From Deltaproteobacteria bacterium (GTDB lineage: Bacteria > Myxococcota > Kuafuiibacteriia > Kuafuiibacteriales > Kuafuiibacteriaceae): 64,000 bases of DNA. Below are positions 5,049 to 26,467 of the stretch, piece after piece. The position numbers and the translations under genes are program-made. The DNA lies in the NCBI GenBank assembly GCA_040218735.1, contig JAVJQW010000064.1, forward strand, positions 1-64,000. The letters are read 5' to 3'. Position 1 is the first letter of the stretch. The number at the start of each line of letters is the position of its first letter. The notes beneath the pieces are model-generated. The model had not been told where the DNA came from. It ran no database searches and saw nothing but the letters and a program-made list of their open reading frames with translations.

Positions 5049-8000
5049 TTGCTCTGCTTTCGATGCGGTAGCCACGTTCAGGACGGGGCCGAAAAGTGCT
5101 GGAATTGCGGGACGGTGCTCTCGTCGGCGCAGGCGCGCCGAGCGCCGACCGCCGAACAACGGGCGCAGCAGCGCACCGGTAGTCGGGTCTTCGGCGTCGT
5201 CTTCAAGATCGGCGACCTGATCGCCAACCGGTACAAGGTCAAGGACATCGTCGGATCCGGCGGCGCTGGCGTCGTGTACCGGGCCCACGACACCGAGATC
5301 GACGTCGACGTGGCCGTAAAGGTCATCAACGCCAAGCTCGTCCAGACCTCGGACGAGCAGCGGCTCTTCTCGCGCCAGACGAAGATCGCGCGGAAGCTGT
5401 CGCACCAGAACGTCGTGCGCATCTACGACGAGGGCCGCGACGAGGCGCGCCCGTACGTCACGATGCAGTTCCTCGAGGGCCTCTCGCTCCGCAAGATCAT
5501 CGATCTGCGCGGGGAGAAGAAGCAGGTCTTCACGCTGGCGGAGGTCGAGCCGATCTTCAACCAGCTCTGCCAGGCGCTCGACTACGCCCACAAGACGACC
5601 TTCCACGGGAACCTCAAGCCCGACAACGTGATCGTGCTGCCGGACCTCTTGAAGGTCACGGACTTCGCGTTGCTCCGCGGCCTCCCGCGCAAGCCCTTCC
5701 TCGCGATCCAGAAGTCGCGCGCCTCCAACTTCCGCTACCTCGCGCCGGAAGTGCGCCTGGAGGTCGCGGACCTCGAGCGCTCCGTCGACGTCTACAGCCT
5801 CGGCGTCGTGCTCGGCGAGATGCTCACCGGTGTCGTGTACGACGACACCAAGCCGGAGAAGCTCGACGCCTCCGGCCTCGACCCCGCAATCCTCGCGGTG
5901 ATCAAGCGGTGCGTCGCGCGCGCGCCGAAGGATCGCTACGCGTCCACGCAGGACCTCTACGCGGATCTGCGCAGCGCGCTGTCGCGCGGCTCTGGCGCGA
6001 AGGCCGCCGCCGCCGCCGCAGCGGCGGGTGACGCGCCGACCCAGCGCCTCGAAATCGACAAACATGGGCAGCGCCCTGGCGGCACCGCCGAGGCCGGCAA
6101 ACGTCCGCCGCCCGAGGTCCCGCCCGCGCCGCCGAAGCCGGTGGAGATCCAGCCGAGCCTCGCGGTCGCTTCCGCGATCGAAGCGCCGGAGGGCGTGAAG
6201 CGCGAGGGGACGGATCTGCACGAGATCGACGACGACATGATCGAGTCGTCGATCGTCGCGCAGAAGAAGGCCGACACCGCGAACAAGGCGGCCCAGTCCG
6301 CCAACGGCGCGAGCAACGGCGTGCACAAGAACGGCGCAAACGGACACGCGGCGCCCGTCGCGCCGAGTGTCACCGGTGCGTCCGAGCCCGTCGCGGCTGC
6401 GCCGGAGCCCGACCTCGTCGACAACCCCAACGCGGTCGAGCTGGCGGAGGACGAGGAGGTGACGATCGCCGTCTTCGATCACCCGCCGATGCCGTCGCGC
6501 CCCATCGCGGCGGAGGGGATCAGCGTGCGGCCCGAGCCGGGCCTGGAGGAGATCAGCAACTCGGCGATCGAGCTGATCGCGGATCCGAGCGCGACGAACG
6601 TCTACGACGTGGACGCCGACGGGTCGCCGAAGCCCTCCGTGCAGGTGAAGGACGTCGCGGTGTCGACGAACAACCGCACGATGCAGCCGACGCCGCTGCC
6701 GGACTCGGCGATCCCGGAGCCGGCGTTCTCGCAGGTCGCGCACGAAGGGACGCAGGCGGGCCGCCTCGACGAACCCGCGCCGGCGACGCCCGGTGCGCCG
6801 GGGGTCGACGTTCAAGAGGAGCGCACCCAGGGCATCGCGTACTCGCCGAAGCCGCAGACGCGCGGCCCGACCGCGGCGTTCGACGGAACGAACGCGCCGA
6901 AGGCGAAGAAACGCCCGATGACGCGCCCGCGGATGCCGACGATGTCGGCGGCGCCCGTGCCGATGACGAGCACGGTCGGCGGGCCGGCGATCGTCGACCC
7001 GAGCACGATGCCGCGCCCGGCGACGCAGGAGGCGTTGTCGATCCCGAGCATGGTCGTGCCGCCTGCGGCCGCGCCCGCCGCGCCGCCGGAGGAGCCGAAG
7101 AACAACCGTTTCGTGATGATCACGGTGGCGTTGTCGCTGTTCGCGGTGCTGCTGGCCGTCGTGGTCCTGGTGATCGCGCTGAGTCAGAAGTCGGATCTCG
7201 AGGAGCAGATCAAGGCGATGCGCACCGAGGCCGCGCAGGCGCGTGAGACAGGGACCGTCGCGCTCGCCGACGCGAAGAAGGCCGAGGTCGAGGCGAGGGC
7301 CGCCGCGAAGGCGGAGGAAGAGGCCCAGGCTCGCGCCGCCGCGGCGGACGCTGCGCAGAAGGAAGCCGAAGAGGCCGCGAAGGCCAAGGAGGCGGAGGCC
7401 CGCCGGCTCGAAGAAGAGGCGAAGGCCGAGGCCGACGCGAAGCGCAAGGAAGAGGCGAAGCGCCGCGCCGCGGAGGCTTCGGCGGCGGCGGCCGAGCGTC
7501 GTCAGGCGGCCGCCGAGGCGGCGGCCGAGCGTCGCGAGGAGCGTAAGCGCGCCGCCGAGGAGCGCAAGAAGAAGGAAGCGCGCGAGCGCGAGCAGCGCGA
7601 CAAGGAGCGCCTCGCCAAGGAGCAGGAAGAGGCCGCGCGTCGCGCCGAGGATCGTGCGAAGCGGCTCGCCGCCGCGGAGGCCGAGGACGAGGCCCGCGCG
7701 CGTCGCGATCAGGCGAAGGTGGAGGAAGAGCGCCGCCGTCGCGAGGCCGAGGCCGCCGCGAAGGCTCGTGAGGAAGAACGCAAGCGCAAGGAAGCCGAGG
7801 CCGCCGCGAAGAAGGAGGCGATCTCGGAGCCCGAGCCCGCCGCGATGGTCGCGAAGGACAAGGAGCCGGAGTGTCCGCGGGGCATGGTGCTGATCAAGGG
7901 CGGGTCGTTCATGTTCGGCTCGAAGCGCTCCGACCCGGAGCGTAACTTCGGCGACAAGGACTACGTCTCCGTCGAGGTGCCGGCGTTCTGCGTCGACTAC

Positions 8001-8441
8001 TACGAGTACCCGAATGGCCGTGGCCGTTCGCCGTCGACGAAGGTCTCGTTCAAGACCGCGGCGGCGCGGTGCAAGCGGCGCAAGAAGCGCCTCTGCACCG
8101 AGGAGGAGTGGGAGAAGGCGTGTAAGGGGCCGAGCGGCTCGCGGTATCCGTACGCGAACCAGTGGGACCCGACGTCCTGCAACACCGAGGACGACGAGGG
8201 CTCGGACCGCGAGGTCGAAAAGTCCGGTTCGTTCAGGAAGTGCCGCTCCGGTTACAACGTCTACGACATGTCCGGGAACGTGGCGGAGTGGACGGCGACG
8301 CAGTGGGGGACCGGGTACGTCGTGAAGGGCGGCGCTTCGGATCGCCCCGGCTACGACGGTCGCTGCGCGGCGCGTAAGAAGAAGAAGTCGAGCAACAGCA
8401 GCGAGACGCTCGGTTTCCGCTGCTGCGCCGACCCTGGTTGA
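5049..8441 (+). CDS. Membrane Ser/Thr (pseudo)kinase: Zn ribbon, kinase-like domain, Pro-rich linker, TM helix, TolA-like coiled coil, FGE-sulfatase (SUMF1) domain
   Basis: CFRC..CWNC; GSGGAG, VAVK, HGNLKPDN, TDFA, LAPE; hydrophobic helix FVMITVALSLFAVLLAVVVLVIAL; RLCTEEEWEKAC, YDMSGNVAEW, GFRCC. TTG start. Confidence 0.88.
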   Translation: MLCFRCGSHVQDGAEKCWNCGTVLSSAQARRAPTAEQRAQQRTGSRVFGVVFKIGDLIANRYKVKDIVGSGGAGVVYRAHDTEIDVDVAVKVINAKLVQTSDEQRLFSRQTKIARKLSHQNVVRIYDEGRDEARPYVTMQFLEGLSLRKIIDLRGEKKQVFTLAEVEPIFNQLCQALDYAHKTTFHGNLKPDNVIVLPDLLKVTDFALLRGLPRKPFLAIQKSRASNFRYLAPEVRLEVADLERSVDVYSLGVVLGEMLTGVVYDDTKPEKLDASGLDPAILAVIKRCVARAPKDRYASTQDLYADLRSALSRGSGAKAAAAAAAAGDAPTQRLEIDKHGQRPGGTAEAGKRPPPEVPPAPPKPVEIQPSLAVASAIEAPEGVKREGTDLHEIDDDMIESSIVAQKKADTANKAAQSANGASNGVHKNGANGHAAPVAPSVTGASEPVAAAPEPDLVDNPNAVELAEDEEVTIAVFDHPPMPSRPIAAEGISVRPEPGLEEISNSAIELIADPSATNVYDVDADGSPKPSVQVKDVAVSTNNRTMQPTPLPDSAIPEPAFSQVAHEGTQAGRLDEPAPATPGAPGVDVQEERTQGIAYSPKPQTRGPTAAFDGTNAPKAKKRPMTRPRMPTMSAAPVPMTSTVGGPAIVDPSTMPRPATQEALSIPSMVVPPAAAPAAPPEEPKNNRFVMITVALSLFAVLLAVVVLVIALSQKSDLEEQIKAMRTEAAQARETGTVALADAKKAEVEARAAAKAEEEAQARAAAADAAQKEAEEAAKAKEAEARRLEEEAKAEADAKRKEEAKRRAAEASAAAAERRQAAAEAAAERREERKRAAEERKKKEAREREQRDKERLAKEQEEAARRAEDRAKRLAAAEAEDEARARRDQAKVEEERRRREAEAAAKAREEERKRKEAEAAAKKEAISEPEPAAMVAKDKEPECPRGMVLIKGGSFMFGSKRSDPERNFGDKDYVSVEVPAFCVDYYEYPNGRGRSPSTKVSFKTAAARCKRRKKRLCTEEEWEKACKGPSGSRYPYANQWDPTSCNTEDDEGSDREVEKSGSFRKCRSGYNVYDMSGNVAEWTATQWGTGYVVKGGASDRPGYDGRCAARKKKKSSNSSETLGFRCCADPG

Positions 8442-8453
8442 TGTCCCGCGCCC

Positions 8454-9434
8454 ATGGCGCGACGTGAAGTCATCGACGCTACGACGCTCGCGTGGGTGCG
8501 CGACTGCACCGGTGCGTCCGACGTGTACGCGCCGGCGTTCCTGCAGCGGTTGTGGGCGGGGTACGGTGCGATTCATCGCGTCCACCTCGACGGTGCGCCG
8601 TACGGCTCCGCGATCGTGAAGGTCGTGACACCGCCGTTGGACGCGTCCCACCCGCGCGGGTGGGGCACGGATCGGTCCGACGCTCGGAAGCGTCGCTCCT
8701 ACGAAGTGGAGTGCGCCTGGTACCGAACCTACGCGTCACGCTGCGCCGGATGTCGCGTCCCGAGGTGTTATGCGGCGGAGGCGTTCGAGGGTGGGTGGCG
8801 CATCCTCCTGGAAGATCTCGACGCGGCGGGCTTCGCGGGTCGGCGCGGGCGCTTCGTCGACGCGGACGTCGAGGTCTGCCTCGATTGGCTCGCAGCGTTC
8901 CACGCGACGTTCGTCGGCGTGGCTCCGGAGGGCCTATGGCCGGTCGGCACGTACTGGCACCTCGCGACGCGGCCCGACGAGCTGTTGGTCACGGAGGATC
9001 CGCGGCTCGCCGCCGCGGCGGAGGCGATCGACGCGCGCTTGTCGTCGGCGCGGTTCACGACCTTCGTGCACGGCGACGCAAAGCTCGCGAACTTCTGCTT
9101 CGGCGAAGCGGGCGTCGCGGCGGTCGACTTTCAGTACGTGGGCGGCGGGTGCGGGATGAAGGACGTCGCGTACTTCCTCGGCGGCGCGGCGCGCACGGAT
9201 TCGCTCGAGAAGAACGCCGACGCGTGGCTCGACAGGTACTTCGCGACGCTGCGCCGCCACCTCGATCCCGCGGTGGACGCCGACGCGTTGGAGGCCGAGT
9301 GGCGCACGCTGTACCCGTTCGCGTGGGCCGACTTCAACCGATTCCTCTCGGGCTGGGCGCCCGGGCACGAGAAGCTGGAGCCGTACGGCGCGAGGCTGAC
9401 GGAGCAGGTGTTGCAGGAGCTTCGGGTGCGGTGA
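8454..9434 (+). CDS. Aminoglycoside/choline/ecdysteroid kinase-like phosphotransferase
   Basis: [35 protein letters not shown]. Confidence 0.85.
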
Positions 9435-9440
9435 GCCTCG

Positions 9441-11114
9441 TCAGTCCTCGCGCAGGGCATCGACGAGCTGTTGGCCGCGTTCGAGCTCTCGCCGGATCTC
9501 CTTGATGTAGTTGCGGCTCTGAATGGCCTTGTCGCGGCCGAAGAGCTCGTAGACCGCGCGTCGCTCGTCGAGGCGACCGAGGGCGGCTTCGAGGACGAGG
9601 CCTCTGAAGCCTTGGCTGAGATCGAGGTCGAGGGTGTCGCCGGCTTCGGCGCGTTGCATCGCTTCGTCGACGAAGGCTTCGGCCGCGCGACGGAGCGCGT
9701 CGATCGAGGTCTGTTGCGCGGGGGCCAGTTCGAGCGCGAGCGCGCGCTCCACGTGGTGCGCTGCGAGGAGGGCGTCGCGCCCGACTTCGCCGCGGTCCGC
9801 GACGAACATCGCGTAGGCGCGGCGCACGACGTTGTCGAGCTGGCGCAGGTTGCCGGGCCAGGTCTGTCGTTCGAGCACGGCGGCGGCTTCACCGGAGAGC
9901 TCGGCGTCGCCGTCGGGGGCCGTCTGGCGGTGGCGCCGGTCGAGCATGAACCCCGCCCAGCGCGCGATCTCGTCGCGGCGTGCGTCGAGGGAGAGCACGC
10001 GGACCGGCAGGACGTTGATGCGGTAGTACAGGTCCTCGCGGAACTTGCCGTCGCGGACCGCGTCCGCGAGGTCGACGTTCGTGCCGACCAGGAAGCGGAC
10101 GTTCGCCGTCCGCGCGCCAGTCGGGTCGCCGAGCATGCGGTACGTCTTGTTCTCGAGGAGCCCGAGCAAGGCGGCTTGCGCGGCGAGGGAGAGTTTGTCG
10201 ATCTCGTCGAGGAACAGCGTCCCGCCGTCGGCGCGTGCGATGTACCCCGGGTTGTCTTCCACCGCGCCCGTGAAGGCACCGCGCCGCCAACCGAACAGCT
10301 CACCCATCTGCGTCGCCTCCGGGACGGTGTGGATGTCGAGCGTGACGAACGGCCCCTCCGCGCGCTCGGAGCGCGCGTGGCACCACGCGGCGAGGCGCGA
10401 CTTACCGCTCCCCGTCGGGCCCTGAATCAGAATCGACTCCTCGAGGCGAGCGAAGACCCGCAGCAGATCGATGACCGGAGCCATCGCGGCGCCCACCACC
10501 GGGAGCAGCGGATCCACCGGCGCTTCGTTCTGCCGTTCGAACGGGAGCCCGCAGAGGTACGGCGAGGCGAAGCCGGCGAGCAGCTCGAGCTGCGCGGTGA
10601 CCGACTCGGGCAGCGGCCACTGGTCGACCGCCTGCGGTGCGCGTAGCTCCAGCGCGATCATCCCCGCGACGCGCCCGCCGGGTGCGCGTAGCGGCACGGC
10701 GAGCAGGTGCGTGGCGCCGCGACTCTGCAGGCGGATCAGGCTCGCGGCGCCGTCGAAGGTCTTGGTGGACTCGGTGGCCAGCGCCGCGCTCGCTCCGTCG
10801 GCCACCGATGCGCGGCCCAGCCGGACGTCGACGAGGACGGGCGCCCGTTCGTGGGCGACCCAACGCCACGCCGTGGCGGAGGGGACGAGGGTGTCGTCGG
10901 CGCTCGGCGCCGAGAGCCGAGAGGCGCCCCGCTCGAGCGCCGCGAGGCCGCGGTAGTCGCCGTCCGGCCGCAGGTGGATGCTCGCACGGGTCGCGGCCTC
11001 GGGCGTCGCGTCCAAGATGCAGGTCAGGACGACGAACGCGGCATCTTCGAACCGCTCCGCGCCGATCAGTCGCTCCAGCACTTCGAACAGATCGCTGTCG
11101 GGTGACCGCGCCAA
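9441..11114 (-). CDS. Sigma54-dependent enhancer-binding protein (GAF-like N-terminus, AAA+)
   Basis: GPTGSGKS, ELFGWRRGAFTGA, GGTLFLDEID, FREDLYYRI, WPGNLRQL. Start placed at TTG 11114 (ORF open to 11252). Confidence 0.9.
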   Translation of the reverse strand: MARSPDSDLFEVLERLIGAERFEDAAFVVLTCILDATPEAATRASIHLRPDGDYRGLAALERGASRLSAPSADDTLVPSATAWRWVAHERAPVLVDVRLGRASVADGASAALATESTKTFDGAASLIRLQSRGATHLLAVPLRAPGGRVAGMIALELRAPQAVDQWPLPESVTAQLELLAGFASPYLCGLPFERQNEAPVDPLLPVVGAAMAPVIDLLRVFARLEESILIQGPTGSGKSRLAAWCHARSERAEGPFVTLDIHTVPEATQMGELFGWRRGAFTGAVEDNPGYIARADGGTLFLDEIDKLSLAAQAALLGLLENKTYRMLGDPTGARTANVRFLVGTNVDLADAVRDGKFREDLYYRINVLPVRVLSLDARRDEIARWAGFMLDRRHRQTAPDGDAELSGEAAAVLERQTWPGNLRQLDNVVRRAYAMFVADRGEVGRDALLAAHHVERALALELAPAQQTSIDALRRAAEAFVDEAMQRAEAGDTLDLDLSQGFRGLVLEAALGRLDERRAVYELFGRDKAIQSRNYIKEIRRELERGQQLVDALRED

Positions 11115-11196
11115 GCCCGGCGAGTCTACACGGCTCCGAAGAACGCTCCCACGGGGGCCTCGATTCGGACGCTGACAACGCGGTACGACGGGCCGC

Positions 11197-13101
11197 GTGG
11201 CGGTGGGACCTCGTGATCCGCTCGGGCTCGGGCCGGGCGTCAGCATCCACACGGTCCAAGGCTACGACCCGGACGGCGTGGTCCGCAGCGCGACGATCGT
11301 GCTGGGGGCGCGCGAACCGACGCTGCTCTTCGACGCGTCGCCGTACCCGGCGTTGCTCGCGGCGTTGACGGAGCCGAGGACCTCGGTCGAGCTCGCGCGC
11401 GCGATCCAACACGTTGCGGATCCGCCGCGGGTGCACGTCGCGATTCGTCGGCTCGTCGCGCTGGGCGTCGCGGCGCCGGACACACCGGCTGCGCCGTACG
11501 AGGTGACGGCGCTGCCCGACGACCTCGCGCTCACGGTGCTGACGCGCCTCGACCTGGAGACGCTCCGACGGGACGGTCGTGCCGCCGCGCGCGCGGGGCG
11601 ACGCTGGACGTTCCTGCTGCGGTGGGGCGGCGCCGTGTGGCTCGGACCGCACCTCGCGCCGGACGGCCGCCCTTGTGTCGATTGCCTCGTCGATCGACTG
11701 CGGCACACGCAGCCCGTGCTCGCGTACGTCACGCGCGACGACGCCGCGCCTCGGAGCGCCGCGCCCGACGCGCGGTTGCTCGAGCTGGCCGCGCAGCACG
11801 GGCGCTCCCGACCCACCGACGAGCCCGCGGTCCTCGTGCGACAGGATCTGGAGAGCGGCGAAGAGACCCGGCACACGCTCCACCCGACCTGCGCGCGGTG
11901 CGGGCCGGACGACGCTCCGCTCGAAGCGCTCGTGGATCCGGTGCTCGGCGTCGTCGCGCGCGCCGAGGTCGTGACCGACGAAGCCCCGTTTGTGTCCTTC
12001 GCCGTGACCCCGAGGTGCCCACCCGCCGGCGAAGCGCCGTCCGCCGAGGCGTTCTTTCGGACGTCGAGCGGGAAGGGCGCGACCGCGCAGGCCGCGCGCC
12101 GCGGGGCGATCGCCGAGGCGCTCGAGCGTCGGTCCGCGACCTGGGCCGGGCAGCGCGCGGTGCGGGCGACCTACCGAGCGCTGGGTGCACGCGCCGTTCA
12201 TCCCGCGCGGATACTTCAGTTCAGCGAGGCGCAGTACCGAGCCCGAGCACGCGGCGACGCCCGCCCCGAGGTCGACCCGCGCCGTCGCGTCCCGCCGCAG
12301 TTCGACGAGGACACGCCGGTCTCGTGGGTGTCCGCGCGCTCGCTCGCGAACGGCATCGAGCGGCTGCTCCCAGCCGCGCTCGCCTTCCTCGACGAGCGCT
12401 CGTCGCCGACGTTCTGCTACGACGATCCCAACGGCCTGGGCGCCGGGGCGACGCAAACGCAAGCTACCTTGCACGCGCTCTTGGAGCTCGTCGAGCGCGA
12501 CGCCGTGGCGTTGTGGTGGTACAGCCGAGCGCTTCGACCAACGATCGACCGGGGAGGAATCGACGCCGTCGCGGCGCGGTGGTGGATGCACCTCGAGCGA
12601 GACGCCTCCGACGTCGCGGTCCTCGACCTCACGTCGGACTTCGAGATACCGGTGTTCGCCGCGATTCGACGCGGAGCGGGCGCACCGCGGGTCGGCTTCG
12701 GGTGTCACCTCGATGGTCGCGTCGCGCTGCGCCGGTGCCTCGCCGAGCTGGCCCAGAGCTGCGCGGCGCGCCCGTCGCCGCGGGCCGAGGTGGATTGGAG
12801 CGCGGCGACCTTCCTCGATCCCCACGGAGAGCCCCGCGCGGTCTCGACCTTCGAAGCGACGGACGACGAAGCCCTGAACGCCGTCGTCACCCGGCTCGCG
12901 GCTCACGGCTACGACCCCCTCGTCGTCGATCTCCCCCCGCCCGGCGGGGGCCTTCACGTCGTGCGGGCCGTCGTTCCCGGACTGCGACACTTCTGGCCCC
13001 GGTTCGGCCCCGGGCGCCTGTATGAGACCCCCGTCGCGCTCGGCTGGGTCGACGCCGCGCCGATCGAAGCCACGCTCAACCCGTTGCCGGTGCTCTGGTA
13101 G
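11197..13101 (+). CDS. Fused E1-like/leader-binding and YcaO cyclodehydratase (TOMM C-D fusion)
   Basis: GP...GRPCVDCL and CARCG (E1-like); SSGKG, AEALER, PNGLGAG, LLELVERDA, ELAQ; ends PGLRHFWPRFGPGRLY...LNPLPVLW, the Pro-rich tail of azoline-forming YcaOs. Confidence 0.92.
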   Translation: MAVGPRDPLGLGPGVSIHTVQGYDPDGVVRSATIVLGAREPTLLFDASPYPALLAALTEPRTSVELARAIQHVADPPRVHVAIRRLVALGVAAPDTPAAPYEVTALPDDLALTVLTRLDLETLRRDGRAAARAGRRWTFLLRWGGAVWLGPHLAPDGRPCVDCLVDRLRHTQPVLAYVTRDDAAPRSAAPDARLLELAAQHGRSRPTDEPAVLVRQDLESGEETRHTLHPTCARCGPDDAPLEALVDPVLGVVARAEVVTDEAPFVSFAVTPRCPPAGEAPSAEAFFRTSSGKGATAQAARRGAIAEALERRSATWAGQRAVRATYRALGARAVHPARILQFSEAQYRARARGDARPEVDPRRRVPPQFDEDTPVSWVSARSLANGIERLLPAALAFLDERSSPTFCYDDPNGLGAGATQTQATLHALLELVERDAVALWWYSRALRPTIDRGGIDAVAARWWMHLERDASDVAVLDLTSDFEIPVFAAIRRGAGAPRVGFGCHLDGRVALRRCLAELAQSCAARPSPRAEVDWSAATFLDPHGEPRAVSTFEATDDEALNAVVTRLAAHGYDPLVVDLPPPGGGLHVVRAVVPGLRHFWPRFGPGRLYETPVALGWVDAAPIEATLNPLPVLW

Positions 13102-13118
13102 GCTGCCGCGACTTCGCG

Positions 13119-14183
13119 ATGTACGTCGTCGATGCGGACCGCCACCTGATCGAGCCCTTCACCCTGTGGGGAGGCCTCGCGCCCGAGCTTCGATCGTACC
13201 TCCCGGAGCGCGCCGGGTACGGCCTGCGCATCGGCGGCGAAGACGTGTGGCGACCGCTGCTCCCGAAGACCGAACGGATGCTCGAGGCCGCCGCGGCCGC
13301 GCGCGCCGAGGACATCGCCGCGGCCGCCTCCGGGGCCGGCCACCTCGCGGCGATGGACCGCGCCGGAATCGACGCCGCCGTGCTGTTCCCGACCATCGCG
13401 CACTTCATCCTCGCGATCGAAGCGCTCCCCGCGCACGTCGTGGCCGACTACGCGCGGGTCTACAACGCCTACGTGCGGTCGTGTTGCGCCGTCGACGACC
13501 GGCGCCTCTTCGCCGCCGGTGTCGTCTCCCGGCACGACGTCTCCGCGATGCCCGACGCGGTGGTGCGTCTCGCCGACGAGGGCTTTCGTGCGGTCGTCGT
13601 CCGCCCGAACCCGATGCACGGCCGGACGATCGCACACGCAGACTACGAACCGTTCTTCGCCGCCTGCGAGCGGACGGGCCTCGCGCTCGTCGTCCACGAA
13701 GGCTCCCACGCACGTGCGCCGTCCGCGGGGGCCGATCGCTTCGAGACTCGCTTCGGGCAGCACGCCTGTTCGCACCCCTTCGAACAGATGATGGCGCTGA
13801 CCGGCCTCATCGAGGGGGGCGTCCTCGAACGCCACCCGACGCTGCGCGTTGGGTTCTTCGAGGCGGGCGCGGGCTGGCTCCCCTACTGGCTGTGGCGACT
13901 CGATCACGTCGAGTACGCGCAGCACCGCGACGAGGTGCGGGAGCACGTCTGTCGCCCTCCGTCGCAGTACTTTCGTCGTCAGTGTTGGGTGACGGTCGAG
14001 CCGAGCGAGCCCGGGCTCGACCGTGTCGTCGAGATCGTCGGGGCCGACCGCCTGCTCTTCGGGACCGACTTCCCCCACCTCGACCACGACGCCGACGCGG
14101 CGCCGACGTCGCTCGACGCGGTGGGGCCCACGGTCGCGGGCGCTGTGCTCACGGACAACCCGCGCCGCTTCTATCGACTCTGA
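13119..14183 (+). CDS. Amidohydrolase family protein (Amidohydro_2-like)
   Basis: DADRH, MDRAGIDAAVLFPT, VHEG, FFEAGAGW, FGTDFPH, DNPRRFY; 17 bp after YcaO. Confidence 0.9.
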   Translation: MYVVDADRHLIEPFTLWGGLAPELRSYLPERAGYGLRIGGEDVWRPLLPKTERMLEAAAAARAEDIAAAASGAGHLAAMDRAGIDAAVLFPTIAHFILAIEALPAHVVADYARVYNAYVRSCCAVDDRRLFAAGVVSRHDVSAMPDAVVRLADEGFRAVVVRPNPMHGRTIAHADYEPFFAACERTGLALVVHEGSHARAPSAGADRFETRFGQHACSHPFEQMMALTGLIEGGVLERHPTLRVGFFEAGAGWLPYWLWRLDHVEYAQHRDEVREHVCRPPSQYFRRQCWVTVEPSEPGLDRVVEIVGADRLLFGTDFPHLDHDADAAPTSLDAVGPTVAGAVLTDNPRRFYRL

Positions 14184-14187
14184 CGCG

Positions 14188-14517
14188 TCAGCAGAGGCAG
14201 GAGATGTTTTTCGGCGGGTCGATCCGTCGCAGGTAGTCCGCGAGCTTGGTCGCGCCCTTGTTCAGATCGTCCGGCGTCTTCGGGAGCACGGCGACGAGCG
14301 CTGCGTCCTTGTTCATCTCGATGCTCGCGTTGAGCGCGGGGTCGCCTTCCTCGACGACGATGAGCTGCACGCGCGTAGGCAGCGTGTACTCGATGCGTTC
14401 GTCCGCGAGCGCGGCGTTCGGGTTCGACAGGAGCAGCTGCCGAAACGAGTCGTCCTCCCAGGCGAGGGCGACGGCGATGGACCACGCGTCCTTGAAGTTG
14501 TTCAGGTCAGCACTCAT
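14188..14517 (-). CDS. RiPP precursor, BMA_0021/BMA_0022-type (NHLP-like leader), C-terminal core ...PPKNISCLC
   Basis: 109 aa from ATG 14517 with GGAGGA-type RBS; AVALAWEDDSFRQLLLSNPNAAL leader, LPKTP motif and Cys-rich C-terminus; sits between the YcaO operon and the TOMM kinase. Confidence 0.85.
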   Translation of the reverse strand: MSADLNNFKDAWSIAVALAWEDDSFRQLLLSNPNAALADERIEYTLPTRVQLIVVEEGDPALNASIEMNKDAALVAVLPKTPDDLNKGATKLADYLRRIDPPKNISCLC

Positions 14518-14548
14518 TTCGATTTCTTCCTCCACGGTCTCTCTCGAT

Positions 14549-18406
<3,858 letters not shown>

Positions 18407-18452
18407 TGAGATCCAGGTTCCAGAACACTCTTCACACGCGCGCCGAGGAAGA

Positions 18453-19037
18453 TCAATTTGGGCCTGGCACCCACCCCGGCCAGGTGTCGACCGGTCGGGT
18501 GCGGCACTTGATGAGGAAGTTGACCGCGACGTTCGTCGGGCGCGTCTCGCTGGCCACCTTCACGTCGCCGTAGCTCGAGTCGCTGACGACGCTCGTGGTC
18601 TGGCCGTCGGTGACCTCGGAGAAGGCGTCACCGCTGTCGCTGGTCGTCGCGCCGCTCGCAACGGAGACGCCGTGTTCGTGGCCCTGAAACGCGAAGTCCT
18701 GGGTCGAGCCGACCTTCGCGCCCTTGTTCCCCGTCCCCGTCGCCGGGTCGGCGGGGTCGCGCTTGGACGCGTCGGGATCGCGCGCCTGCTTCGAGGGGCG
18801 ATCGTCCACGCCCCGGAGGAACTGACCGCGGTAGTCGGGGAGCTTGAGCTTCGTCGGCGCGGACGGTTTTCCGTAGATGTCTCCCAAGATCGCAGCGAGC
18901 TGACGGAAGGTCGCCGCGTCGACCTCCGAACCGTCGCACACCAACCAACCCTGGTCCGCGAGGTACAGGCGCACCTCGGGGCTCGCGACGTCGCCGGCGT
19001 AGACGATCACCGTTCCGACGGGCGCTTCGACGATCAT
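18453..19037 (-). CDS. Phage tail-collar domain protein
   Basis: 194 aa from ATG 19037 (ATGA overlap with upstream stop); PVGTVIVYAG, GWLVCDGS, LPDYRGQFLRG, VGSTQ...QGHEH, ETRPTNVAVNFLIK. Confidence 0.9.
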   Translation of the reverse strand: MIVEAPVGTVIVYAGDVASPEVRLYLADQGWLVCDGSEVDAATFRQLAAILGDIYGKPSAPTKLKLPDYRGQFLRGVDDRPSKQARDPDASKRDPADPATGTGNKGAKVGSTQDFAFQGHEHGVSVASGATTSDSGDAFSEVTDGQTTSVVSDSSYGDVKVASETRPTNVAVNFLIKCRTRPVDTWPGWVPGPN

Positions 19038-21754
19038 GGTGCGTCCCCCGGGATCTCCTCGGCGTCCTGCAACATCGTGAGCGTCGTCGGCACGCTGACG
19101 CGCCAGGACGGTCCACTCCCCGAGCGCTCCGACGCTTCGGAGGCGAGCAGCTCCGCGACGGCGGACACCGCCGACGCGTCGAGCGGGATGTCGGGTGGGC
19201 ACGGGACCCACTGCTTTCCGGACGCGAGGAAGTACAGCACCGACAGCTCGAAGCCGCGCCGGATGGGGAGCAGCACCCGCGCCGACTTCGCACGGAGGAA
19301 CGCATCGAACGTGCCGCGCGCGTCGCGGTCGACGTTCGACTCGCCCGCGAAACAACACGGCGACGTCGTGGGGGCGTCGCCCGCCGGCCACGACTTGAAG
19401 TCGAAGGCCATCGCCGGCCACTCGAAAGCGGCGTCGAAGAATCGGTACAGCTCGGGCGTTGCACCGTCCTTGGCCTTCGCGCCGAGGACGTCCATGCCGA
19501 GCGTCGTGAGCGCACGTTCGATGGTCCGACCGCGGTCGTCCTCGCTCTTCGCTTCGATGCGGTCGTGCAGCGCGTCGGTGTACCGTGTTTGCTGAGTTTC
19601 GTAGGCCGCGAGAATTCGCGCGTAGACGTCTTCCTGCCAGGCGAGGAGCAGGTCCGCGTGATCGTCGAGGTTACACTCGACGTCGACCGTCACCGTGAAG
19701 CTCGGCGAGCCGGAGCGAAACGCGACGGGGATGGATCCAGTAGCGGGGCTCAACGTCGCGACCTTCGACGTCCCCACGGCGGGGGTCGCGGGCGTCGGCG
19801 GTTCGAACGGATCCGGACACGTGCACCCCGAGTCGCCGTCCGCCGCGTCGGGCGCCCGCGCCGCGGCGCCGCTGGACTTCAGCTCGAGTGGCTGTGCACC
19901 GACGAAGCCGACCAGCGGGAAGCTCCCGTCCACGAGCGCGTACGTTACCGTCCCCAGCTTCGCGGTATGGCCCGCAGGGACCTCGACCTGCCCGGCGCGT
20001 GCGGGGCCGTCCGACTCGAAGCGGCTCGACACCGTCACGCTCTTTTTGGGCGGCGGGGGCACGTCGACTGCGCCGTAGCGCGTCGCGAGCGAACGGTAGT
20101 TGTTGGCCGCGATCGCGGAGGGGCCGTCGATCGGTGGTGTCAGCGCGGAGGGGGCGACGGGGGCCACGAGCGGACGGGGCCCCGACGCGGCGACGTCTTC
20201 CACGAACCGTTTGGACGGCGAGTCGAGCATCAGCTCCGCGAGGATCCGCAGGCCGCGATCGTGGAGCGACAGGGTGTAGACCTTCTCGAGCCACCGGAAG
20301 ACGCCGACGTTGCGTTGGTCGCGGCCACGGTTGTCGATGCGGCTCGTTTGCTCGCGCACCGACGACTGCTGAAGGTGCCGCGAACGCTTGACCACGGAGC
20401 GCGCCTTCAACCGCTTCGCCGCCTGGTCGGTGATGCGTTGCGCGAACGCCGCCGCCTGTCTTCGGCTCCGCTCCTTCAGGCAGTCGGACCCGTTCCACTT
20501 GCCGGTGAGGCTGACACAGAAGCCCGCGGGGCCGGTCTTCGGGGTGATGTTCGTGTAGTCGCGGCAGATCGACTTGCCGCCGATGACGTCCTGGACCTCG
20601 TCGTCGAGGTCCGCCTCGCCTTCGACGACGTGGATCTCGGCGTCGGCCCGATCTTCACGCTGCTCTTCGCGTTCGGTGACATCGATCGTCGTGGACTCCG
20701 ATCGGCGATCCACCCGCGACTCGAACGGCATCACGTTGATGGTGTTCGCGATGTCTCCGAGCTCGTAGCCGAGGAGCTTCTGCTCGACGACCTCGAGCAC
20801 CCCCACGCCGAGGATCTGCACCCACCCTTCCTTCGACGGTGGCGGGGGGGCCTCGGGCCGCAGCGCGAAGGCGCGCGGCAGCACGGGGATCGCGGAAGCG
20901 ACCGGCGCCGTCTCGGTGTCGCCGTCGGCGAGGTTCGCGAGCAGGGCGCGCGCGCGAAGCGCCCGCAAGACGACTTGCGTCGCGTCCGGATCCTTCGGTC
21001 CGAGCAACGCGTCCGCGACGAACGAGTGCCATAACCGCGTCTCGAGCGCGCGTGACTCGGTGCTCCGCAGGTAGCGCGCGGGCGGGACGTCCAGCAGGCC
21101 TTCGATTGTGGACGCCACGTCCTCGGGCTCGGCGTCGAACACGGCGTCGGCGATCTCCAAGAGCTTGCCCGCGGCCTTCTTCACCGCGGCCGGATCTCCG
21201 AAGTAGTCCGAGGACGCGACGAACGCCCGCGCTCCCGCGAGGACGTCGTCGCCGCCCGACGGAAAGGCCAGTGGCTCGGACCAGCGCAGGAAGCGGGACG
21301 TGTCGTCCTCGGACGCGCTCGGTGCGCGCACCCAGAGGAAGCCGAACAGGTCGCCACACGGCCGCAACGAACGGATCGCGACGCCGCTCCCCACCGGATC
21401 GAACGCTCGCTCGGAGCTCGTCGTCCACGTCGCGATCTGCCCCTGGAACGCGGTGGAGGGCCCCGTCGCGAAGTCGCCGGCGAGGATCGCGAGCCCGCCG
21501 CCGAAGGACAGCGTGAGCTCACCTTCGATCGCGTTCGGCTCCTCACCGATCTCGAACCACCCCGACGGCTGCGCCTCGTCGAGCTCGACGGTGCGCTCGC
21601 CGTTCGGCGACTGGCTGATCACGACACACCGTACCGAGCGCCGGTCGGGCCCCGCGTCCCACGACACCGAAACCTGTGCGGCGCCGCGGTAGGTCTGCGA
21701 CCCCGAGGGGCCGTGCGCGATGTTCGGTACGTCGGATACGTCGGTGCGGGTCAT
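19034..21754 (-). CDS. 906-aa uncharacterised protein, putative toxin/structural component
   Basis: Long ORF in a tight operon; conserved-looking blocks GVGVLEVVEQKLLGYELGDIANTINV, FRWLEKVY, FFDAAFEWPAM, FLRAKSARVLLPIRRGFE, WRVSVPTTL. Confidence 0.75.
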   Translation of the reverse strand: MTRTDVSDVPNIAHGPSGSQTYRGAAQVSVSWDAGPDRRSVRCVVISQSPNGERTVELDEAQPSGWFEIGEEPNAIEGELTLSFGGGLAILAGDFATGPSTAFQGQIATWTTSSERAFDPVGSGVAIRSLRPCGDLFGFLWVRAPSASEDDTSRFLRWSEPLAFPSGGDDVLAGARAFVASSDYFGDPAAVKKAAGKLLEIADAVFDAEPEDVASTIEGLLDVPPARYLRSTESRALETRLWHSFVADALLGPKDPDATQVVLRALRARALLANLADGDTETAPVASAIPVLPRAFALRPEAPPPPSKEGWVQILGVGVLEVVEQKLLGYELGDIANTINVMPFESRVDRRSESTTIDVTEREEQREDRADAEIHVVEGEADLDDEVQDVIGGKSICRDYTNITPKTGPAGFCVSLTGKWNGSDCLKERSRRQAAAFAQRITDQAAKRLKARSVVKRSRHLQQSSVREQTSRIDNRGRDQRNVGVFRWLEKVYTLSLHDRGLRILAELMLDSPSKRFVEDVAASGPRPLVAPVAPSALTPPIDGPSAIAANNYRSLATRYGAVDVPPPPKKSVTVSSRFESDGPARAGQVEVPAGHTAKLGTVTYALVDGSFPLVGFVGAQPLELKSSGAAARAPDAADGDSGCTCPDPFEPPTPATPAVGTSKVATLSPATGSIPVAFRSGSPSFTVTVDVECNLDDHADLLLAWQEDVYARILAAYETQQTRYTDALHDRIEAKSEDDRGRTIERALTTLGMDVLGAKAKDGATPELYRFFDAAFEWPAMAFDFKSWPAGDAPTTSPCCFAGESNVDRDARGTFDAFLRAKSARVLLPIRRGFELSVLYFLASGKQWVPCPPDIPLDASAVSAVAELLASEASERSGSGPSWRVSVPTTLTMLQDAEEIPGDAP

Positions 21755-21767
21755 GGCGGGCTCCTGT

Positions 21768-22208
21768 TCACTTGCGCGAACGTTGTTTGCGGGCGCGGCG
21801 GCGTTGCTCGCTCTTGTCGTCGGCTTCCTCTTCCTCGTCGGCCTCGGCCGCCTCCTCCTCGGGCGGCTCGATTCGAACCGAGCCCTCGCCCGACGTGGAC
21901 CACGACGAGAGCTGGCCCACGAACGCTTCGTGTGGGTTCACCTTCACGGACGCCTCGAGCGCCGTGAACTTCGGGCGCACCACCAGCGACAGGACACCCT
22001 GCACCTTGGGCGGCGTCTCGCCGGCCTCGGAAGGTTTACCGGTGAGCTCGAACGACAGTATCGACTGCTCCGGCGTCAGCGCGTGCTGCTTCGAGCCCGA
22101 CGGGCCCGTGAGCGTGATCTGTACGCAGGAGTCGGAGGGCGTCACGGCCCATGCGATCGAGAATTCGAACGGCGTCGAGAACGCCTTCTTGCCGGTGAGT
22201 TTGTCCAT
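21768..22208 (-). CDS. Hypothetical protein; stand-alone homologue of the N-terminal domain of the 906-aa protein, acidic/basic tail
   Basis: GAGGAGG RBS; P.EAFVGQLSSWSTSGE aligns with PSTAFQGQIATWTTSSE of the next gene. Confidence 0.75.
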   Translation of the reverse strand: MDKLTGKKAFSTPFEFSIAWAVTPSDSCVQITLTGPSGSKQHALTPEQSILSFELTGKPSEAGETPPKVQGVLSLVVRPKFTALEASVKVNPHEAFVGQLSSWSTSGEGSVRIEPPEEEAAEADEEEEADDKSEQRRRARKQRSRK

Positions 22209-22232
22209 CTTCGATACCTCCTCGTCCTTCGG

Positions 22233-22757
22233 TCACTGCCTCAGGACGACTTCCTGGGAGCCCGCGTCGTGCGTCACCGCGATGCCGCGATCGAGGCTGT
22301 CGACGTACAGCGGCGCGGTCATCCGTCCCGCGACCACGGCGCGAATCTCGTAGTTGTCGCCGATGTCGATCTGCTGGTTCTGCCACTGGCCGACCGCGAG
22401 CGTCGCGATGAGGTGCGGCTGTCGCCGCTCCACGCGGAACACCACCGGCGCGATCGTCGTGTTCTCGCAGCCGAGGCTCTTGATTCGACGGGGCGGGACC
22501 TGGTCGATCGACACCGGGCTCCCGTTGCGGTCCGACTGCTGAGATACGACGTACTGCGCGCCGCCTTCGCTCGGCCGCACCTCCATCTCGTGCTCCCAGC
22601 CGTCGTGCTCGTACTTGAGGTGCACGGCGTACTCTTCGAGCACCAGCGTCGAGGCCCGACTGCTCGGCTCGAGGTAGGTCACGCCGAACAGGTAGGGACC
22701 CTGTTGAATCCGGAACTGGACGCGCTCCTTCGTTCGGTTGTCGAGCTCGAGTTTCAC
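22233..22757 (-). CDS. Hypothetical beta-rich protein, paralogue of 22842-23390
   Basis: GTG start with GGAG RBS; shares FRxxQG, CENT...PV, ExxAxVxGxxTxPLxVD with the upstream gene. Confidence 0.75.
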   Translation of the reverse strand: MKLELDNRTKERVQFRIQQGPYLFGVTYLEPSSRASTLVLEEYAVHLKYEHDGWEHEMEVRPSEGGAQYVVSQQSDRNGSPVSIDQVPPRRIKSLGCENTTIAPVVFRVERRQPHLIATLAVGQWQNQQIDIGDNYEIRAVVAGRMTAPLYVDSLDRGIAVTHDAGSQEVVLRQ

Positions 22758-22783
22758 GTCTGACTCCGTCCTTCGAGAGATGG

Positions 22784-22832
22784 GGGGGCGTCGACGCCCC
22801 CGACGGCCGGGGGGACCGCCGGGGGCGTCGAC
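22784..22832 (-). promoter_or_regulatory. Intra-operon inverted repeat / alternative hairpin
   Basis: 13-bp perfect IR GTCGACGCCCCCG (22790-22802) / CGGGGGCGTCGAC (22820-22832), overlapping an 18-bp palindrome GGGGGCGTCGACGCCCCC (22784-22801). Confidence 0.65.
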
Positions 22833-22841
22833 ACTTCCTCG

Positions 22842-23390
22842 TCACGCGAGCTGCAGGTAGTAGCCCGAGTCGTTGTTGTCCTTCAGCAGGTTGATGACCG
22901 CGTTCGGGTCGTCGACGAAGAGGGGCTGCGTCGTGATGCCGTCCACGATCGCGTAGACCTCCCACTCCTGCGCGGTGCTGATGGCGAGCGTGTTGTGCTC
23001 GCTGACGACGCGCGCGGTCTGCAACGGCGAGTTGTCGCGCCACACCTTGATCGTGACCGGCTCCTTCCAGGTGTTCTCGCAGACGATCGCGGACGGCTGC
23101 GAACCGGGCTGCAGCTCGAGGTTGAAGTCGAGGAACTCGTTGTTCACCTCCATCTGCGCGAGGAGCATCGCGGAGTCGTCCGTGAAGGAGATGACCTCGG
23201 AGCTGAGGGAGACGCGCCCGGTCATCGTGAAGGCCTGCGCCTTGTAGGTGTGCCCGGTGGGGACGGTCGCGGTGCCGCCGGGACGCACGCCGACGCGCGC
23301 GACCTGGTCCTTGCCCTGGCGCATGCGGAACTCGGCGAAGCGAACGCTGTTCGGCGAGAGGTTGTTGTTGAGGTTGATCTGATCGCTCAT
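22842..23390 (-). CDS. Hypothetical beta-rich protein, first gene of the sigma54 operon
   Basis: AGGAG RBS then ATG; 182 aa with strong GC3 codon bias; paralogous to the next gene. Confidence 0.8.
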   Translation of the reverse strand: MSDQINLNNNLSPNSVRFAEFRMRQGKDQVARVGVRPGGTATVPTGHTYKAQAFTMTGRVSLSSEVISFTDDSAMLLAQMEVNNEFLDFNLELQPGSQPSAIVCENTWKEPVTIKVWRDNSPLQTARVVSEHNTLAISTAQEWEVYAIVDGITTQPLFVDDPNAVINLLKDNNDSGYYLQLA

Positions 23391-23479
23391 CGAAAACTCC
23401 TGGTGTGGAGGCCTTCGCCCCCGGTGTGTAGCGGGTGGTCCAGCGACCTCGTCCCGCGAATTCGTTGGGACCAGATAAG

Positions 23480-23496
23480 AGCAACCGCCGTGCCGA
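23480..23496 (-). promoter_or_regulatory. Sigma54 (-24/-12) promoter
   Basis: Minus strand TCGGCACGGCGGTTGCT = GG-N10-GC, matching TGGCAC-N5-TTGCW; about 90 bp upstream of ATG 23390. Confidence 0.8.
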
Positions 23497-23916
23497 CGCG
23501 CTCGACGCGAAACGTGGCGATTCGAGGGGGCGTCGTCGTGGACGCGAGACGATCGTTCGTCCGTGGCGGACGATCAGGGCATGACGTGGGCCGCGCCGCG
23601 TGCGCGCAGGTGACCGTCGGCGACGAGGATCAACAGATCCTCGTCGTCGGGTGCGAAGCGCGCGAGCCAACACCCGGCGTCGCCGCAGTCTAGCAGGACG
23701 ATCGTCGCGATGAGGTTCACGGGAGCGGGGTGGTGGACGGCGGACGCGAGCGCGTCCACGAGGGACGCGACCGCGTCGCTCCAGCGTTCGACTTCACAGT
23801 GTTCGGGTTCGAGCGTTCGGACGATCCCCACGCGCGCGAGGTGCGGCGCGACGCGGGGGGCGCCGGAGGCGGTCAGCGGGGGAGGGCGTGGTTCGCGGGC
23901 CGGCATCGACCCCGCG

Positions 23917-24942
23917 TCAGGGCGCGGGGGGCACGATGGTACCAGCCGGCGCCTTCTTGATGATCTTCGGCGTGCCCTCTTCGGGCGTCGCCGCCCACAG
24001 GTTGCCGGGCGTGCGTCCCGGCGGGTCGTCCATGAAGACGAGGCCATCGGCGCCCGTGACTCGCGCCGGGCTGGCGTCGGACATCTGCTGGATCATCTCG
24101 GAGCCGTCGGACTCGGCGGTGCCACCGTCGCCCGCCGTCTTGCACGTGAGCAGCACGATCTGCGCGCCCTTCGCGAGGTACGGCTTCAGCGCCGCCGCGA
24201 ACGTATCCGGGGCGACCTGGTTCTTGTAGAAGCCGACGAAACCCGCGCTCTGGAAGGGCTCGTTCTCGTCGCTGATCCGGAACACCGCCTGCGTGCCGTG
24301 CGCCGCGATGACGAGCACCTTCACGACGATGTCGGCCTTCGCCAGGCGCTCGAGCTCGCCGCGCAGGCTCGCGAGCCCGTTGATCCCGAACGCCTCGGTC
24401 CGCGCCGACAACGCGTGTCGCTCGGCGTACCTCTGGTTCCAGTCCGCTTTGTCGTTGTCCTGGTAGACGTACAGCGCGATTTCGGTCGCGTCCTCCTTGG
24501 GGAGCGCGGTCGGCGCGGCGAGCAGCGCGGGCGGCGCGCCGATCGTCGAACGCTTCGCGTCGTCGGAGTCGTAGCCGCTGAGCTGGTAGGCCGCTTCGAT
24601 CGCCGCGCGCAGCGCGTGCGTCGCCGGCACGTAGCCGTCCGCGAGGATGATGTAGCCGGGTGAGCCTTCGCGGACCTCGGCGATCGCGAACCGCAGCACG
24701 CGGCCGTTGTCCGTCCGGACGTAGACCCGCTGCGTGAGCGCGCAGTTGATGCCCTGCGGGACGAAGCGCTCCGAGGCGAGCTCGCGCGCGACTTGCTGGA
24801 CCAGACCCGGGTGGGCGATCCAGTCGAGCGTCGCCGGTCGACCTTCGTCGTAGGTCTCGAGCGCAAACGCCTCGCTGTGCTGGCGCATCTCTTCGAGGTC
24901 CCGCTTCTTGGCGGGCTCGGCTGGGTGGTTTTGATTCGACAT
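23917..24942 (-). CDS. Hypothetical protein with C-terminal DUF4347-like (caspase-fold) domain
   Basis: 341 aa from ATG 24942 (GGAG upstream); VLVIAAHG ... LKPYLAKGAQIVLLTCKTAG ... VTGAD gives a His-Gly/Cys dyad pattern. Confidence 0.7.
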   Translation of the reverse strand: MSNQNHPAEPAKKRDLEEMRQHSEAFALETYDEGRPATLDWIAHPGLVQQVARELASERFVPQGINCALTQRVYVRTDNGRVLRFAIAEVREGSPGYIILADGYVPATHALRAAIEAAYQLSGYDSDDAKRSTIGAPPALLAAPTALPKEDATEIALYVYQDNDKADWNQRYAERHALSARTEAFGINGLASLRGELERLAKADIVVKVLVIAAHGTQAVFRISDENEPFQSAGFVGFYKNQVAPDTFAAALKPYLAKGAQIVLLTCKTAGDGGTAESDGSEMIQQMSDASPARVTGADGLVFMDDPPGRTPGNLWAATPEEGTPKIIKKAPAGTIVPPAP

Positions 24943-25002
24943 GAGTTCTTTCTCCGCTGTTTCGCCACGCGGGGGGATTCGCCGCGCGATGCGGGGTCCG
25001 AG

Positions 25003-25018
25003 AGCAAGGGGCAGGCCA
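25003..25018 (-). promoter_or_regulatory. Sigma54 (-24/-12) promoter
   Basis: Minus strand TGGCCTGCCCCTTGCT = GG-N10-GC; about 60 bp upstream of ATG 24942. Confidence 0.7.
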
Positions 25019-25150
25019 CTCGACCCGCGGTGCGCGGGGCGGCGGAGGAACCCGCGCGTCGTCCGCAGGAGACGAAGCTGCGTCTCGGCGCTACGAACGC
25101 GAGGGACTGAAGGCTTGTCACCCGGCGTCGATGGCGCCAAGTGTCGGCCC

Positions 25151-26467
<1,317 letters not shown>

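Follow-up and report, generated by a model that had tools for sequence, protein, structure and literature searches.

The window analysed here, 64,000 nucleotides of contig JAVJQW010000064.1 from a Deltaproteobacteria bacterium (Myxococcota; GenBank assembly GCA_040218735.1), contains a 15.7-kb genomic island in which the genes of a thiazole/oxazole-modified microcin (TOMM) pathway adjoin five genes, here named A1, A2, B, C and collar, the last of which encodes a tail-collar domain protein. Comparison with related loci indicates that the island is probably a composite of two separable cassettes, a TOMM cluster (YcaO, amidohydrolase, precursor and kinase/cyclase) and a C-collar cassette. The first-pass annotation of this DNA had proposed that the modified peptide acts as a signal or cargo for a protein assembly encoded upstream; this is not supported, both cassettes being found separately elsewhere, and coupling of a ribosomally made, post-translationally modified peptide (RiPP) pathway to a tail-collar module, which is mostly unsupported, seems unlikely.

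The gene layout behind that proposal was confirmed. Seven minus-strand open reading frames (ORFs), running from A1 to the precursor, are separated by 84, 24, 13, −4, 46 and 31 bp, the YcaO and amidohydrolase genes converge on them, and a GAFTGA activator gene and a sigma54-type promoter are present at the expected places (Table 1). Third-position GC content (GC3) is 0.86–0.97 in all seven, against a window GC of about 0.70, implying that they are coding. A1 and A2 are indeed paralogous beta proteins (30% identity over 77 residues, E 1e-8), and scans with Pfam, NCBIfam, PHROG and PADLOC bear out that the five upstream genes are undescribed and are not TOMM components.

That these genes form an island was also borne out by comparison with G011, a genome of the same genus that is 75% complete (G and L numbers denote genomes and fetched loci in our collection). 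One small G011 contig (L116) aligns to window positions 8373–9420 at 78% and to 25113–26074 at 87.5%, with 660 bp of other sequence between the two flanks, and window 9421–25112 is therefore a single indel block, containing, besides the activator and TOMM genes, the five-gene cassette and an additional gene, P0287. The 660 bp in its place (L116 1032–1691, G011 contig C1063) read as a beta-carbonic-anhydrase-like ORF, so that the locus is better viewed as a replacement hot spot than as a clean insertion site. The gene arrangement is real and not an assembly artefact, since a 29,952-bp contig from a separate-study assembly is collinear with window 9441–11477 and 11569–25100; with 893 differing letters over about 13.5 kb (approximately 93% identity), this relative is too close to inform on selection. 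Searches of the remaining 19 genomes from the organism's family, which is the entire class in the genome collection used, returned no C, no A1 and no TIGR03903 protein.

The separability of the cassettes is seen from both sides. A pattern scan of GTDB species genomes gave 518 confirmed C loci, 80 of which were kept for neighbourhood analysis with neighbouring ORFs called crudely (longest ORFs, greedy overlap removal). YcaO, precursor, amidohydrolase and full kinase/cyclase genes are absent from all 87 other C loci considered (these 80 and seven more), and the five kinase matches among the 80 cover the kinase domain alone. Within the Myxococcota, C was detected at E ≤ 1e-10 in 16 of 401 sampled genomes, the window organism included, and no TOMM gene lies within 20 kb at the six of these loci that were fetched. 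The order A1-A2-B-C-collar recurs in two genomes (G278 and G322; loci L103 and L104), in which A1 is 48–50% identical to that of the window and a weakly similar gene occupies the B position; a hidden Markov model search of all loci with the A family matched in these two alone. Homologues of the upstream genes do occur independently of TOMM genes, which the first-pass annotation had itself named as an observation that would refute its idea.

For the TOMM genes, TIGR03903 scored above its cut-off in 47 of the 401 genomes, and 20 kb was fetched around six of them. Three of these loci, L112 (G172), L113 (G160) and L114 (G200), hold the full four-gene set in the order and orientation of the window, namely YcaO(+), amidohydrolase(+), precursor(−) and kinase/cyclase(−), and none of A1, A2, B, C and collar has a match within their 20 kb. 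What lies upstream of the kinase in these loci is unrelated (an FHA-GAF histidine kinase in G160, a cytochrome bd oxidase in G200), and in such stand-alone clusters the unit begins with the kinase/cyclase gene. Thus the five-gene cassette stands alone in two genomes and the four TOMM genes in three. At the level of whole genomes, a TIGR03903-like gene accompanies C in 11 of the 15 other Myxococcota that have it, with scoring confined to the top two candidates from each genome; these genes lie on other contigs or, where they share one with C, no closer than 326 kb.

Several observations weigh against this composite reading and favour a single seven-gene sigma54 operon, in which the TOMM-modified peptide would be a signal, cofactor or cargo for an assembly of A, B, C and collar proteins. 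The seven genes run in one direction, no gap between them exceeds 84 bp, and the 46-bp spacer between collar and kinase contains no strong terminator, a consensus scan giving only a weak 5-bp terminator-like stem at the collar 3′ end, so that read-through from collar into kinase/cyclase is plausible. In the only close relative, the homologues of C (P0008, 61%), A1 (P0010, 86%) and kinase/cyclase (P0168, 60%) are each encoded on a 207,622-bp contig, almost certainly one and the same; two unlinked loci in an 11-Mb genome would share such a contig by chance in about 2% of cases by our own arithmetic. The linkage thus seems to survive approximately 40% protein divergence, a persistence that appears to exceed usual chance synteny. 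The island also behaves as one block, both relative to G011 and in the collinear 93%-identical contig. Against the operon stand the 0 of 87 C loci with TOMM genes, the 3 of 3 inspected full TOMM clusters without the cassette, and the first position of the kinase/cyclase in stand-alone units. The missing exporter, which had been taken as an argument for a role in a protein assembly, fails as such: no ABC or C39 exporter lies beside the three stand-alone myxobacterial clusters either, so that its lack is a general trait of the cluster type and needs no special explanation in the window. No literature joining ‘tail collar’ and ‘YcaO’ was found, with subscription journals not covered. On balance we regard the seven-gene operon as unlikely, and still consider improbable the more elaborate proposal that the C family is an undescribed two-component effector system, here wired to TOMM genes under one sigma54 promoter, with the Cys-modified peptide loaded onto, or triggering, a C/collar assembly. 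For a composite island, read-through from collar into kinase/cyclase may occur and would be needed for neither cassette.

Table 1. Coordinates of the island, its genes and its candidate promoter elements in the 64,000-nucleotide window
Feature	Position	Strand	Evidence or remark
Island	9421..25112	.	G011 contig L116 aligns to both flanks
Sigma54 enhancer-binding activator (GAFTGA)	9441..11252	-	PF00158, 162 bits; GAFTGA visible in translation
YcaO cyclodehydratase fused to leader-binding (E1-like) domain	11197..13101	+	PF02624, 237 bits
Amidohydrolase_2	13119..14183	+	PF04909, 98.9 bits
NHLP-Burk-like precursor, 109 aa, ends ...NISCLC	14188..14517	-	TIGR03795, 35.9 bits
TOMM kinase/cyclase fusion (Ser/Thr kinase, AAA_16 STAND ATPase, helical tail)	14549..18406	-	TIGR03903; Pkinase, AAA_16
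Collar, tail-collar domain protein, 194 aa	18453..19037	-	PF07484, 50.8 bits (cut-off 24)
C, 906-aa core protein of unnamed family	19034..21754	-	Conserved core 300-906
B, free-standing copy of C N-terminal beta-sandwich, acidic and basic tail	21768..22208	-	146 aa
A2, beta-rich, A1 paralogue	22233..22757	-	Orthologues in L103, L104
A1, beta-rich, first gene of unit	22842..23390	-	Orthologues, 48-50%, in L103, L104
Sigma54-type -24/-12 promoter CGGCACGGCGGTTGCT	23480..23495	-	About 90 nt upstream of A1 ATG
P0287, unknown protein within island	23917..24942	-	GC3 0.89
Second, weaker sigma54-like motif TGGCCTGCCCCTTGCT	25003..25018	-	Upstream of P0287; two mismatches to consensus

Judged by sequence, the TOMM genes of the window are an ordinary member of the NHLP-Burk/kinase-cyclase cluster type, which the first-pass annotation had correctly named. 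The kinase/cyclase scores 856.3 bits with TIGR03903 (curated cut-off 705.75), and matches PADLOC 2.0 kinase models by its kinase domain alone. The fused cyclodehydratase-docking YcaO protein expected of the type is present, with an N-terminus just under the TIGR03882 cut-off (35.7 bits over residues 136–242, cut-off 36.9) and a TIGR03604 score likewise just short (198 versus 219 bits). The precursor falls below the cut-offs of both TIGR03795 (35.9 versus 41 bits) and TIGR03793 (31 versus 50.9 bits); its position and Cys-bearing C-terminus fit the cluster type, and the syntenic precursor of L112 ends in a similar ...PLTCFC. Haft, Basu and Mitchell (2010; PMC2887384) describe the type with a ‘large Ser/Thr kinase’ and a C-terminal Cys or Cys-Cys, and report that the precursors of Burkholderia, Delftia and Acidovorax come as a pair, in tandem or fused; the portion of Cox et al. 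(2015; PMC4603692) considered adds nothing further on the products. Only a single precursor ORF, with no tandem or fused pair, is found between 14188 and 14549, and a tandem pair may not be defining for myxobacterial clusters.

The window amidohydrolase is 43–45% identical to the gene adjoining YcaO in L112, L113 and L114, and sequence comparison marks it as a fixed member of myxobacterial NHLP-Burk TOMM clusters. The G160 cluster has in addition a B12-binding radical-SAM enzyme and a ThcOx/nitroreductase-type dehydrogenase (L113 2922–4874 and 6022–7443), both placed between YcaO/amidohydrolase and precursor and both absent from the window cluster. The window contig (C43) has no TIGR03605 match indicative of a SagB-type azoline dehydrogenase; as a ThcOx/nitroreductase gene is present in G160 and none in the G200 cluster, a dehydrogenase is optional for the type. 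Some ‘TOMM kinase/cyclase’ proteins sit outside TOMM clusters: in L109, L110 and L111 (G278 contig C87, G232 contig C90 and G368 contig C1) TIGR03903 scores 750–960 bits, above cut-off, and no YcaO, precursor or amidohydrolase gene lies within 20 kb, with sigma54 activators nearby in two of the three. The window genome itself has a second kinase/cyclase-like gene (G000:C55:200564-203134, L002; TIGR03903 242.7 bits, far under cut-off), approximately 130 kb from a divergent C paralogue on the same contig.

The C-collar cassette belongs to what is, from sequence comparison, a large, phylum-spanning and unnamed family, in which a conserved protein of about 950 residues is paired with a swappable, often toxin-like partner. 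A word-based search with C returned three proteins only; a profile search of 1.84 billion representatives gave 3,736 at E ≤ 1e-3 and 2,202 at E ≤ 1e-30, residues 300–906 approximately being the part conserved across the family. The 80 loci analysed span cyanobacteria, Actinomycetota, Bacteroidota, Pseudomonadota, Bacillota, Acidobacteriota and a Methanosaeta metagenome-assembled genome (MAG). In 63 of them a same-strand (+1) gene lies directly downstream of C, usually within 50 bp; no conserved gene was found at the −1 position upstream. Pfam assigned the +1 genes to patatin (8), PAD (7), M23 (5), LodA (4), collar (4) and PT-TG (3), the remainder being a few singletons and many genes without a family, and no domain or segment common to the +1 families was detected at E ≤ 1e-3. 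Window C aligns over the whole core and is followed by a same-strand partner, consistent with a two-gene cassette of this kind. No description of the C family was found in the literature, nor anything relevant on patatin, arginine deiminase, LodA and M23 together, subscription journals not being covered. The divergent paralogue in the window genome (G000:C55:334175-334963, L108) is 25% identical over residues 318–585 and forms a long branch outside the collar clade described below.

Among Myxococcota, collar directly follows C in 6 of the 6 fetched loci. Over all loci, the pair is seen within the five-gene order in L103 and L104, and as C plus collar in L102, L105, L106, L107, L011, L012, L014 and L017. 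In a tree of the C core (79 rows; seven near-duplicate Micromonospora/Nocardia rows were left out of the 85 passing coverage), the 11 collar-linked C proteins form one clade (SH-aLRT 98) whose members all have a collar partner (11/11) and which spans four phyla, with Myxococcota, two cyanobacteria, a Chitinophaga and a Desulfurivibrionaceae MAG. The tree was built by a quick method and has several long branches, so that some caution is due. Partner type at the +1 position changes 13 times on it, versus 24–31 times in 200 label shuffles. Collar-type loci repeatedly carry free copies of the C N-terminal domain upstream, of about 204 residues and sometimes in tandem; B, which is 28% identical to C residues 17–115 (107 aligned residues, E 1e-8), fills that role in the window. 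Further genes seen at collar-type loci include an unnamed protein of about 350–375 residues (approximately 30% identity), absent from the window, in a Chitinophaga and two myxobacteria (L014 7566–8678, L105 7332–8462 and L106 11730–12788), and, two genes upstream of C in Microcoleus (L012 6766–7764), a Nal1-like protein with a NARROW LEAF 1 C-terminal domain.

The collar gene overlaps C by 4 nt (ATGA), and its domain is the sole one of its kind in the 11.6-Mb genome. Its PHROG matches number 23 families, most of them for tail fibres or collars (best E 3e-28), and residues H120 and H122 are invariant in 11 orthologues, a His-x-His motif that we take to be the site at which trimeric collar and fibre tips bind metal. 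The phage-like character of collar raises the possibility that it and its neighbours derive from a prophage tail-fibre module that has decayed and is devoid of cellular function. We consider this very improbable: A1, A2, B and C have no annotated PHROG family (A1, B and C match none, and the single match of A2, to a family of unknown function, is not significant at E 0.047), all frames are intact with high GC3, the C-collar pair is kept across four phyla with its translational overlap, and the island contains no other phage genes. Nor do the data fit ‘toxin delivery’ by a phage-tail-like or contractile injection system, one of the roles previously suggested: PHROG and Pfam scans of A1, A2, B and C, together with fold searches of C, gave no sheath, tube, baseplate or spike protein, C yielding only generic beta-sandwiches.

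None of A1, A2, B and C has a Pfam match, and C, like other members of its family, matches nothing in Pfam, NCBIfam, PHROG or PADLOC. C appears to consist of an N-terminal beta-sandwich (approximately residues 1–111), a helical region and the conserved core. Its AlphaFold2 (AF2) model (pLDDT 81.2, pTM 0.67) predicts two very long strands (310–341 and 482–511) that flank charged loops of low confidence and a helix of 37 residues, together with a second beta-sandwich (571–697) and a mixed C-terminal domain. Foldseek gave no match to the PDB at E ≤ 0.001, VIA-wide returned a generic beta-sandwich at 571–697 only (best Z 9.3), and BFVD one small-domain match (E 7e-4); for residues 296–570 modelled separately (pLDDT 67) the best VIA-wide Z was 3.7, and a profile search of PDB sequences produced nothing meaningful. 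These model-based searches do not establish a new fold. A complex prediction for C(112–906) with collar scored 0.00, a value that counts neither for nor against binding. The ESM Atlas places C and A1 in ‘hypothetical protein’ clusters, with a weak RhiA_N lead for A1 (20% of one cluster).

How the two cassettes may work can be outlined as follows. The YcaO, amidohydrolase, precursor and kinase/cyclase cassette presumably modifies the Cys-containing C-terminus (NISCLC) of the 109-residue precursor. C may act as scaffold or carrier together with the product of the next gene downstream, to which it would be translationally linked and which is specific to the lineage. In most clades this partner would be an enzyme acting on the envelopes or proteins of other cells, i.e. 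a phospholipase, peptidoglycan peptidase, arginine deiminase, lysine oxidase or PT-TG toxin; in the collar clade it would be a trimer-type, HxH-bearing receptor-binding collar domain, with B, A1 and A2 as possible accessory subunits. We infer that the function of the C family is to deploy a lineage-specific, mostly envelope-directed partner protein. Some points tell against this scheme: C has no visible signal peptide and no known fold, the +1 families have no detectable shared domain, and the tree statistic for partner type overstates independence because kin share labels.

A conserved large protein with a swappable effector, patatin included, also resembles many defence systems, and C and its partner might instead be an anti-phage (abortive infection) system, with C as sensor, the +1 protein as effector and free N-domains as decoys or regulators. 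The patchy spread of C (16/401 Myxococcota genomes, 0/19 in the organism's own family) and the position of the cassette in a variable island are in keeping with such a role. PADLOC 2.0 models matched none of A1, A2, B, C and collar, and Pfam and NCBIfam scans found no ATPase or nuclease in C. M23 peptidases, LodA and PT-TG are typical of exported antagonistic proteins, and the collar domain is not a killing effector. An anti-phage function is accordingly doubtful, and deployment of an envelope-directed partner remains our preferred reading of the C family.

The A1-collar cassette is probably expressed from the sigma54 promoter at 23480–23495 under the GAFTGA activator of the island. The element CGGCACGGCGGTTGCT has one mismatch to the consensus. 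The window contains three sigma54 motifs versus 1.76 expected, and at least three occurred in 26 of 100 shuffles, so that the count alone is not above chance and the case rests on position and on comparison with the C-collar cassette of G160; the promoter, as first annotated, is nevertheless plausible, being well placed and accompanied by an activator. In G160, activator, N-domain paralogue, C and collar are co-directional in that order, and CGGCATGGGTGTTGCT, which closely follows the activator gene and precedes the first gene of the cassette, occupies the position equivalent to that of CGGCACGGCGGTTGCT. The two activators are 51% identical over residues 242–600, compared with 36–40% for other activators in the fetched loci. 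Since a similar promoter and an activator of its own come with the G160 cassette, sigma54 control is probably a property of the C-collar cassette, to which we assign the window activator on sequence similarity. The assignment is only tentative, as some kinase/cyclase-like genes (L109 and L111) likewise have sigma54 activators nearby and such activators are numerous in these genomes. An ECF (extracytoplasmic function) sigma factor replaces the sigma54 activator upstream of the cassette in G346, G278/G322 and G184. Sigma54 activator genes adjoin C-family genes in L031 (7835–8479; a Lewinellaceae MAG with a patatin partner) and L021 (15508–16140; an Acidobacteriota MAG). Together, gene neighbourhoods hint at a recurrent but loose link between the C family and sigma54 control. 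The true start of the window activator is probably internal to ORF 9441–11252, and its N-terminal sensory part has no Pfam match.

P0287, the further gene of the island, likely starts at the Met at residue 67 of ORF 23917–25140. It has no Pfam or NCBIfam match and no homologue among the fetched loci; by eye, an ...AAHG... and ...LLTCKTAG... pair in its C-terminal part might form a His/Cys catalytic dyad. A short way to the left of the island, window 5049–8441 (+) encodes a protein of 1130 residues that combines a zinc ribbon with a Ser/Thr kinase domain and, at the C-terminus, an FGE-sulfatase (formylglycine-generating-enzyme-like) domain.

Were a RiPP to feed a tail-like protein assembly, a ribosomal peptide would serve as a functioning component of a protein machine and not as a free antibiotic; in this island the association is probably a juxtaposition. 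The C family, with thousands of members from cyanobacteria to actinomycetes and in a methanogen, has no name in the libraries searched. Its function, once known, would annotate thousands of genes and could uncover a new route by which bacteria put to use phospholipases, peptidoglycan hydrolases, arginine deiminases and lysine oxidases. For myxobacterial NHLP-Burk TOMM clusters, the comparison points to a fixed amidohydrolase and a general lack of exporters.

Among known systems, the window collar resembles phage tail collar and short tail fibre proteins in its PF07484 match and conserved His-x-His, and differs from them in being a stand-alone protein of 194 residues without a fibre shaft, with a cellular partner of about 950 residues and no phage genes. 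The C family is similar to polymorphic effector cassettes, such as VgrG-effector pairs and PT-TG toxins, in that a conserved gene is followed by lineage-specific, toxin-like partners whose type tracks the phylogeny of the conserved gene. In contrast to polymorphic effectors, C matches no secretion, phage-tail or toxin family, no secretion apparatus is nearby, and what varies is a protein of its own, not a C-terminal domain. The GAFTGA AAA+ activator and −24/−12 element are as in sigma54/enhancer-binding-protein operons of Myxococcota, except that the type of regulator is not fixed to the C cassette, ECF sigma factors replacing the activator elsewhere. With the NHLP-Burk/Ser-Thr kinase TOMM clusters the window shares the kinase/cyclase fusion, the fused cyclodehydratase-docking YcaO, and a precursor with a long NHLP-like leader and short Cys-bearing C-terminus (PMC2887384). 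Unlike the Burkholderia clusters with tandem precursors in that account, it has one precursor, which scores below the TIGR03795 cut-off; it is further set apart from NHLP-Burk clusters by the amidohydrolase, fixed in the myxobacterial ones, and by its position directly downstream of an unrelated cassette.

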